The translations under genes were made by a program, and so were the position numbers. A stretch of DNA of 64,000 nucleotides from Escherichia coli (GTDB lineage Bacteria; Pseudomonadota; Gammaproteobacteria; Enterobacterales; Enterobacteriaceae): NCBI RefSeq assembly GCF_044324875.1, contig NZ_CP172185.1. One strand, given 5' to 3'. This document shows positions 21,253 to 23,366 of this stretch, piece after piece. Position 1 is the first letter of the stretch; each line of letters starts with the position of its first letter. Below the pieces are notes generated by a model, which saw only the letters and a program-made list of their open reading frames with translations, was not told the DNA's origin and ran no database searches.

Positions 21253-21414
21253 GATATTTCCCCTGAACCCACATCCCTTGTTATGTAGTGCCATAACCTC
21301 TGTCCAACGCTGATGCCGTTTTTGGCGGGTTTGCTGTTTAAGGCGTTCCGGACGACGGAGTGAACCGCCCCGGGAATCCTGGAGACTAAACTCCCTGAGA
21401 AAGAGGTAAACAGA

Positions 21415-21741
21415 ATGACTAAAAATACTCGTTTTTCCCCCGAAGTCCGTCAGAGGGCGATTCGTATGGTTCTGGAAAGTCAGGGCGAATATGACTCACA
21501 GTGGGCGGCAATTTGTTCCATTGCCCCAAAGATTGGCTGTACACCGGAGACTCTGCGTGTCTGGGTACGCCAGCATGAGCGGGATACCGGAGGCGGTGAT
21601 GGCGGGCTCACCACCGCTGAACGTCAGCGTCTGAAAGAGCTGGAACGTGAAAATCGTGAACTGCGCCGCAGTAACGATATCCTTCGCCAGGCTTCCGCTT
21701 ATTTTGCGAAGGCGGAGTTCGACCGCCTCTGGAAAAAGTGA
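21415..21741 (+). CDS. IS629-like transposase OrfA
   Basis: 108 aa, HTH plus leucine-zipper region ([29 protein letters not shown]). Confidence 0.85.
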
Positions 21742-22628
21742 TGCCACTGCTGGATAAGCTGCGTAAGCTGTACGGGGTCGGACCGGTATGCAGTGAACTA
21801 CATATTGCCCCGTCAACGTATTACCACTGTCAGCAACAGCGACATCATCCTTATAAACGCAGTGCCCGTGCGCAGCGCGATGACTGGCTGAAGAAAGAGA
21901 TACTGCGCGTATACGATGGGAATCATCAGGTATACGGTGTGCGTAAAGTCTGGCGTCAGTTGTTACGGGAAGGAATCAGGGTAGCCAGATGTACAGTGGC
22001 GCGCCTCATGGCGGTTATGGGACTTGCCGGTGTTCTCCGGGGTAAAAAGGTCCGCACTACCGTCAGCCGGAAAGCCGTTGCCGCAGGCGACCGCGTAAAC
22101 CGTCAGTTTGTGGCAGAACGTCCTGACCAGTTGTGGGTGGCTGATTTTACTTACGTCAGCACATGGGAGGGGGTCGTCTATGTGGCGTTCATCATTGATG
22201 TGTTTGCCGGATACATCGTGGGGTGGCGGGTCTCATCGTCTATGGAAACGACATTCGTGCTGGATGCTCTGGAGCAGGCGTTATGGGCCCGTCGACCGTC
22301 CGGCACAGTCCATCACAGTGATAAAGGTTCTCAGTATGTATCGCTGGCCTACACACAGCGGCTTAAGGAAGCCGGATTACTGGCATCAACAGGAAGTACT
22401 GGTGACTCGTATGACAACGCGATGGCGGAGAGCATCAATGGCCTTTACAAAGCGGAGGTAATACACCGTAAGAGCTGGAAAAACCGGACAGAAGTGGAGC
22501 TGGCCACACTCACGTGGGTGGACTGGTATAACAATCGACGATTGCTGGAAAGGCTGGGCCATATCCCACCGGCAGAAGCAGAAAAATCTTATTATGCTTC
22601 CATCGGAAACGATGATCTGGCAGCCTGA
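21738..22628 (+). CDS. IS629-like transposase OrfB (DDE integrase core)
   Basis: 296 aa overlapping orfA stop; [10 protein letters not shown]...HHSDKGSQY...[10 protein letters not shown]. Confidence 0.85.
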
Positions 22629-22670
22629 GTTCACAGATAAAACACTCTCCAGGAAACCCGGGGCGGTTCA

Positions 22671-23366
22671 GAGCGATGCTACAGGCACAGACAGTACTGG
22701 CTTAGGTGATTTCTTTGGTGACAACCCACTGGCAACAAGACGTATCAGAGGCATCTGTCTGTACATCATTCGTTCAGGCGCATCGCCAATATTTTTTAGC
22801 AGGTGCCATCGATCAGCTATCTGTCTGGCCTGAGGTGCACCTTCACGTGCTGCTGTCGCATAGACTCCGCCACGGTCACGTGAGACAACCTGTATTTCCG
22901 GATATTTTCTGAACCAGGTCGCCAGCGTACTCTGATCGCAACCGGGAAGCAGGACGAGGGGACGGTGAGTATCAAGATTGACAATTAACGTGCCGTAATG
23001 GTGGCCCCGATGCCACGCCCACTCATCAATACCGACATGAGGCGCGCCCGACTGTTTCGTCTCCGGGGTATTAATAACCCTGCGAAGAAGAGTATCAGCA
23101 CTGCAACGGAGCCCCACTGCCGTTGCTGCCTGTTTCCCGGCCTCACCTCCGGCTATTAATCCCAGTTGATGTTGTAAATTTTGTAACACCTGTGAAGAAT
23201 GCTGGGAGTGAACCGGCGAAGGGGGCAAGCGACCCGGCAAAAATTTTACGTGAACAAGCCGGGTTACGGCAGTACCAGTGGCGGACGGAAAATACAAGCC
23301 ATAGCGTCTGCCCTGAGCAGGGTAGATGCTGTATCCGGCGCCGACGATAACTATGAACAGAGTCAC
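22671..23366 (-). pseudogene. ISL3-family-type transposase gene, 3'-truncated by the IS629-like insertion
   Basis: 232-aa minus-strand ORF with GIDEWAWHRGHHYGT and VSRDRGGVYA...QIADRWHLLKN motifs; its stop codon TGA is supplied by the last 3 bp of the IS (22668-22670). Confidence 0.5.

Follow-up and report, generated by a model that had tools for sequence, protein, structure and literature searches.

A single IS629-type insertion in an already degraded ISEc38-family relic of Escherichia coli

Has one mobile element inactivated another at this locus? The question arises because a minus-strand reading frame of ISL3-type transposase character runs without interruption up to the boundary of an insertion sequence (IS) and terminates on bases of that IS. 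We analyzed the locus within a 64,000-nucleotide stretch of the E. coli genome (assembly GCF_044324875.1, contig NZ_CP172185.1), hereafter the window, to which all coordinates refer unless stated otherwise. A preliminary description had read the arrangement as the simple insertion of an IS629-like element, flanked by a 3-bp GAG duplication, into an ISL3-type transposase gene that was thereby disabled and whose full length should reappear when the IS is removed in silico.

The inserted element is a complete IS of the IS3 family, IS629/IS1203/IS3411 group, which occupies positions 21361-22670 (plus strand, 1310 bp) and is present in a single copy within the window. Its terminal inverted repeats begin TGAACCGCCCCGGG and agree at 14 of the first 14 positions and at 23 of the first 25. 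The 5'-TG...CA-3' termini, the length of about 1.3 kb and the imperfect inverted repeats are those of the IS629 group. Within these boundaries the element presents the following features.

21415-21741, plus strand: orfA, 108 aa, with an HTH_Tnp_1 domain (Pfam PF01527, E=1.8e-12)
21738-22628, plus strand: orfB, 296 aa, with an rve integrase core (Pfam PF00665, E=4.9e-27) and also an HTH_21 domain
21696-21812, plus strand: predicted ALIL frameshift-stimulating pseudoknot (Rfam RF01497, 116.2 bits compared with a gathering score of 50, E=1.8e-30), spanning an AAAAAG run

The orfB frame is -1 relative to orfA, and the AAAAAG run lies at their overlap, at the end of orfA (21733-21738). In the NCBIfam transpos_IS3 model, orfA covers profile positions 1-86 and orfB positions 93-369 (308.7 bits). 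The two overlapping reading frames (an HTH orfA and a DDE/rve orfB), together with the predicted -1 frameshift signal, likewise place the element in the IS629 group, as the preliminary description had proposed. In PGAP annotation, a 'programmed frameshift' is noted on the IS1203-family copy of O157:H7 and an 'AL1L pseudoknot' is listed under near-identical copies. Judged from its sequence, the element looks intact and is potentially active.

Matches to the 1310-bp element occur in most complete E. coli genomes (4259/5426), and near-identical copies (99.8-99.9% identity) are carried by many E. coli chromosomes and plasmids. The O157:H7 copy, which PGAP names 'IS3-like element IS1203 family', aligns gap-free at 94.8% identity (1242/1310), and its annotated CDS, like that of the window element, spans 1214 nt. 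ISfinder sets 95% nucleotide identity to the reference as the lower limit for an isoform, by which 94.8% appears borderline for isoform status; 'IS629-like' is a fair name for the window element. IS1203 and IS3411 are themselves IS629 isoforms, and IS629 subtypes differ by 4-5% (Rump et al., PMC3271280). The identity to the O157:H7 copy thus argues that the window element belongs to another IS629 subtype or isoform.

On the opposite strand lies the frame that raised the question.

22668-23366, minus strand: 232-aa ORF with a GTG start, open up to the IS; the frame stays open farther upstream into IS1

Its stop codon is indeed formed by the IS: the element ends in TCA at 22668-22670, and these last three bases read as TGA on the minus strand. 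The ISL3 assignment holds as well, with matches to Pfam PF01610 (E=4e-17) and to NCBIfam NF033550 (E=3.8e-46), the latter scoring 157.9 bits, below the 180-bit cutoff of the model, because the ORF is a fragment. The ORF is 86% identical to residues 90-313 of an ISEc38-family transposase. Over its first ~53 aa, which lie between two frameshifts that cancel each other, the ORF is read out of frame, and the remainder corresponds to ISEc38 residues ~104-281. As both ends of IS629 read 5'-TGA inward, one in three of the possible phases of an entering host frame leads to a stop at the junction. The donated stop codon is incidental and has no functional meaning here. This calls for caution in annotation, as an ORF that meets an IS without interruption and takes its TGA from that IS mimics a freshly disrupted gene, and here it belongs to a relic.

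The preliminary description had staked its reading on the frame continuing across the left flank. When the IS and one GAG are removed, the frame does continue, for 67 codons, to give 299 aa in total. A full-length ISL3-type transposase is not restored, since intact relatives, the ISEc38-family transposases, are 539 aa long. Only ~210 residues of the 299-aa product align to this protein, at residues ~104-313 and 86% identity, and the Pfam DDE_Tnp_ISL3 profile is matched, even after excision, only at positions 1-137 of 240, which leaves the catalytic domain incomplete.

What is missing became apparent on comparison with an intact element. The best intact relatives are 539-aa proteins with the NCBI name 'ISL3-like element ISEc38 family transposase', among them P0093, which is encoded by an intact ISEc38 element of 1722 bp with terminal inverted repeats that match at 21/23 positions (contig L007, 1427-3148). 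We aligned the relic, with the IS removed, to this copy. A ~92%-identical copy in ST131 was dropped as the intact reference because internal stops mark it as a pseudogene too, and the intact ISEc38-family protein and locus were used instead. The relic is 93.2% identical to the intact element over 1273 aligned bases, which identifies it as a descendant of ISEc38-type elements. Its parts and lesions are as follows (codons are those of the intact gene).

20863-21360, minus strand: 3' part of the ISEc38-family relic, from the right inverted repeat to the IS629 insertion point
22674-23488, minus strand: 5' part of the relic, ending at the IS1 boundary
23488/23489, 5' end: loss of ~99-101 bp (left repeat, ATG and first ~9 codons); the sequence stops at the IS1 left repeat
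~23388, codon 43: 1-bp deletion
~23207, codon 103: 1-bp insertion
~21221-21260, codon ~313-315: an extra G in a G-run (~21260) and two extra 18-bp units, +37 nt
21195-21256: 18-bp tandem repeat, 3.4 copies, inside the HTH-like segment of the relic
~21077/21078, codons 363-479: 349-bp deletion in the DDE domain
~21000, codon 504: 2-bp insertion preceding the catalytic-E region, just 5' of the conserved NGVVEGHVNRLK segment

The -1 change at codon 43 and the +1 change at codon 103 form a pair that puts the zinc-ribbon codons 43-103 out of frame: homology to the zinc ribbon (PF14690) is kept at the DNA level and lost from the reading frame. At the other end of the gene, the catalytic-E region lies in another frame, beyond the 349-bp deletion. 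The tandem repeat has two units (36 bp) more than intact ISEc38 and most related genomes, is length-polymorphic, and in the original frame encodes a repeated ITGLSR. The relic keeps one of the two inverted repeats, the right one (20863-20886), along with the original stop codon, and the left repeat is missing at the IS1 junction. Elements of the ISL3 family are flanked by an 8-bp target duplication, and the left end of the relic no longer exists at this locus. With respect to the intact protein, we also observed that residues 303-398 of P0093 match the N-terminal HTH region of the model for IS21-family transposases (NF033546, E=5.5e-16). The ISL3 transposase model matches a span that includes these residues, and the segment may help explain the length of 539 aa.

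The insertion itself is simple, as had been claimed. GAG is present on both flanks of the IS.

21358-21360: left GAG target-site duplication copy, directly outside the IS; a single GAG is present in the empty site
22671-22673: right GAG target-site duplication copy; on the minus strand it is a CTC codon, Leu281 of the ISEc38-type transposase

The insertion point falls between codons 281 and 282 of the ISEc38-type gene. We searched 5,426 complete E. coli genomes with an empty-site query, in which 20561-21360 was joined to 22674-23490 (IS and one GAG removed). The empty site, with one GAG, is found exactly (1617/1617 bases) in strains GF43 and Br_112_kylling, and 38 records match the joined flanks at 99% or better. 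Comparison of the whole window by blast with 50 kb of GF43 gives collinear blocks that end at 21360 and restart at 22671, with subject coordinates that overlap by exactly 3 bp, the duplicated GAG; to the left of the insertion, collinearity with GF43 extends over more than 11 kb. The single GAG in GF43 and the exact 3-bp overlap of the blocks argue that the duplication is real and not a 1-in-64 coincidence. No record among the 5,426 genomes covers the occupied left junction. A search of plasmids did not find the occupied junction either, and only two records reached at least 80% coverage, both from E. albertii with a different insertion ~80 bp away. An exact empty site in two genomes and no occupied junction in 5,426 indicate a simple, strain-specific insertion. 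Its absence from these complete genomes makes the occupied site usable as a strain-specific marker.

The empty-site allele also bears on the order of lesions and insertion. It is base-identical to the joined flanks over 1617 bp and so has every relic lesion within that span. PGAP annotates the empty allele in GF43 and in AR_0085 as 'ISL3 family transposase; frameshifted', with a complete IS1A adjoining. Large plasmids of E. coli, of which several come from chickens, also have the relic, at 99.5% identity, and a related frameshifted ISL3 pseudogene (93% identical) adjoins the aerobactin locus in another genome. Records that match the relic at 95% identity or better number 176, and ISEc38-type sequences are present in 3,332 genomes.

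These observations bear directly on the proposed inactivation of one mobile element by another. An ORF that is open up to the IS, and that stays in frame for 67 codons after excision, favors an IS629 insertion into a functional ISL3-type transposase gene that removal of the IS would restore. The restored ORF, at 299 of 539 aa and little more than half of the DDE_Tnp_ISL3 profile, does not bear this out; five further lesions disable the gene, the lost start codon and left inverted repeat and the 349-bp deletion among them, and those within the compared span are present in the empty-site allele at 100% identity. We regard inactivation of a functional gene by IS629 as very improbable, and this part of the preliminary description is abandoned. 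The flanks might, alternatively, never have been contiguous, if the IS marked a junction at which two IS copies had recombined or been rearranged, or if the assembly were chimeric; insertion sequences crowd the region (IS1, an IS21-family element, 1331-bp IS3-family copies), and rearrangement or misassembly is common in regions of this sort. We find this scarcely credible, as the flanks are contiguous at 100% identity in GF43 and Br_112_kylling, the 3-bp duplication is located exactly at the junction, and the left side is collinear for more than 11 kb. Persistence of a long frame (232 aa from GTG, open upstream into IS1) could suggest that this product, or one read in from IS1, is expressed as a functional transposase-derived protein with the IS-donated stop as its new C-terminus, a proposal to which we attach almost no weight given that the first ~53 residues are out of frame, the native start codon and the catalytic-E region are missing, and the occupied allele occurs in no other genome and bears no sign of selection.

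We conclude with high confidence that an intact IS629-type element inserted once, and probably recently, in the lineage of this strain, into a non-functional ISEc38-family relic. The simplest account places the decay of the ISEc38 copy far in the past and the arrival of IS629 last. The empty alleles could in principle derive from precise excision rather than ancestry, but as they share the lesions, such an origin would leave the conclusion unchanged. By then the ISEc38 gene had been deprived of the left end with the start codon, of 349 bp from the DDE domain, and of a correct frame in both the zinc-ribbon and the catalytic-E regions, and the IS629 insertion was for this reason functionally inconsequential for ISEc38.

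As to how the insertion took place, the IS629-type element entered the relic where a genomic island is rich in insertion sequences, and its insertion between codons 281 and 282 duplicated the 3 bp GAG. Transposition probably followed the copy-out/paste-in route described for IS629 and other members of the IS3 family, in which the intermediate is circular. The preprint on IEE states that the insertion sequences affected by IEE, an effect first seen with IS629, transpose via a circular intermediate, presumably by copy-out/paste-in (IEE preprint). The insertion was in all likelihood selectively neutral, and its biological weight is very small, as it struck sequence that was already dead.

The right-hand surroundings of the relic present a second nested arrangement.

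23489-23648, plus strand: left 160 bp of IS1, which truncates the relic; left inverted repeat at 23489, collinear with the complete IS1A of GF43
23649-26287, minus strand: IS21-family element, 2639 bp, istA/istB, ISSso4-like (PGAP: ISSso4-family IstB), inside IS1 with a 5-bp ACTGC duplication
26288-26900: remainder of IS1, the end at 26900 computed from GF43 collinearity

The IS21-family insertion is absent from GF43, whose IS1 is intact. Strain 3R, which has a 100%-identical IS21-family copy, was considered for ordering the events and rejected, as that copy sits at a different locus. Elsewhere in the window, two 1331-bp IS3-family copies (8310-9640 and 36192-37522) are each 96.5% identical to a GF43 copy; their positions differ from those in GF43, which points to other strain-specific moves of insertion sequences in the same island. 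At 28485-28844, the window has ~360 bp where GF43 has ~78 bp, at the GF43 gene for a YadA-like adhesin. The window resembles the GF43 island as far as 46169, and glnP starts at 46556. From there to 64000 the window is core chromosome, with glnPQ, a mechanosensitive channel, rlmF, fiu, ybiX, ybiB, dinG and rhlE; no glnH ORF was seen in the window upstream of glnP. The same island abuts cadC in GF43, which means that strains differ in the island or in its border. The window yielded no tRNA gene.

The two E. albertii plasmids recovered in the plasmid search carry an arrangement of a similar sort. One of them, pEA15_1 (L009, 2408-3631), has an ISEc38-like relic joined to a degraded IS629-like element of 91% identity and independent origin; the junction lies ~80 bp from the insertion point in the window, in the same relative orientation, and the second plasmid is likewise. 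A regional insertion preference of IS629-family elements for a short ISEc38-type segment may be entertained, although we think it unlikely: from no more than two insertion events a preference cannot be told from coincidence, which would account for them just as easily.

Comparison with known systems supports an unremarkable assignment. With IS629/IS1203/IS3411, the window element has in common the length of 1310 bp, the TG...CA ends and the TGAACCGCCCCGGG start, orfA and orfB of 108 and 296 aa in -1 relation, the predicted ALIL pseudoknot and the rve DDE domain. Its 3-bp target duplication falls within the 3-4 bp that IS629 makes (PMC3271280). From the IS1203-family copy of O157:H7 it differs, with an identity of only 94.8%.

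The relic resembles ISEc38 (ISL3 family, 1722 bp, 539 aa) in its nucleotide identity of 93.2%, in its retained right repeat and stop codon, and in residues ~104-313, which are still readable. It departs from ISEc38 in the loss of the left repeat and start codon to IS1, in four frameshifting indels, the 349-bp deletion and the 36-bp tandem expansion, and in being split by IS629. Nested IS insertions are routine in E. coli. The locus is of the same kind as the nested insertion sequences of IS-dense genomic islands and virulence plasmids in E. coli and Shigella, where one IS lies within the remains of another. A known IS629-group element in a known type of relic is an ordinary nested insertion, nothing new in kind, of which only the exact IS629 site is strain-specific.
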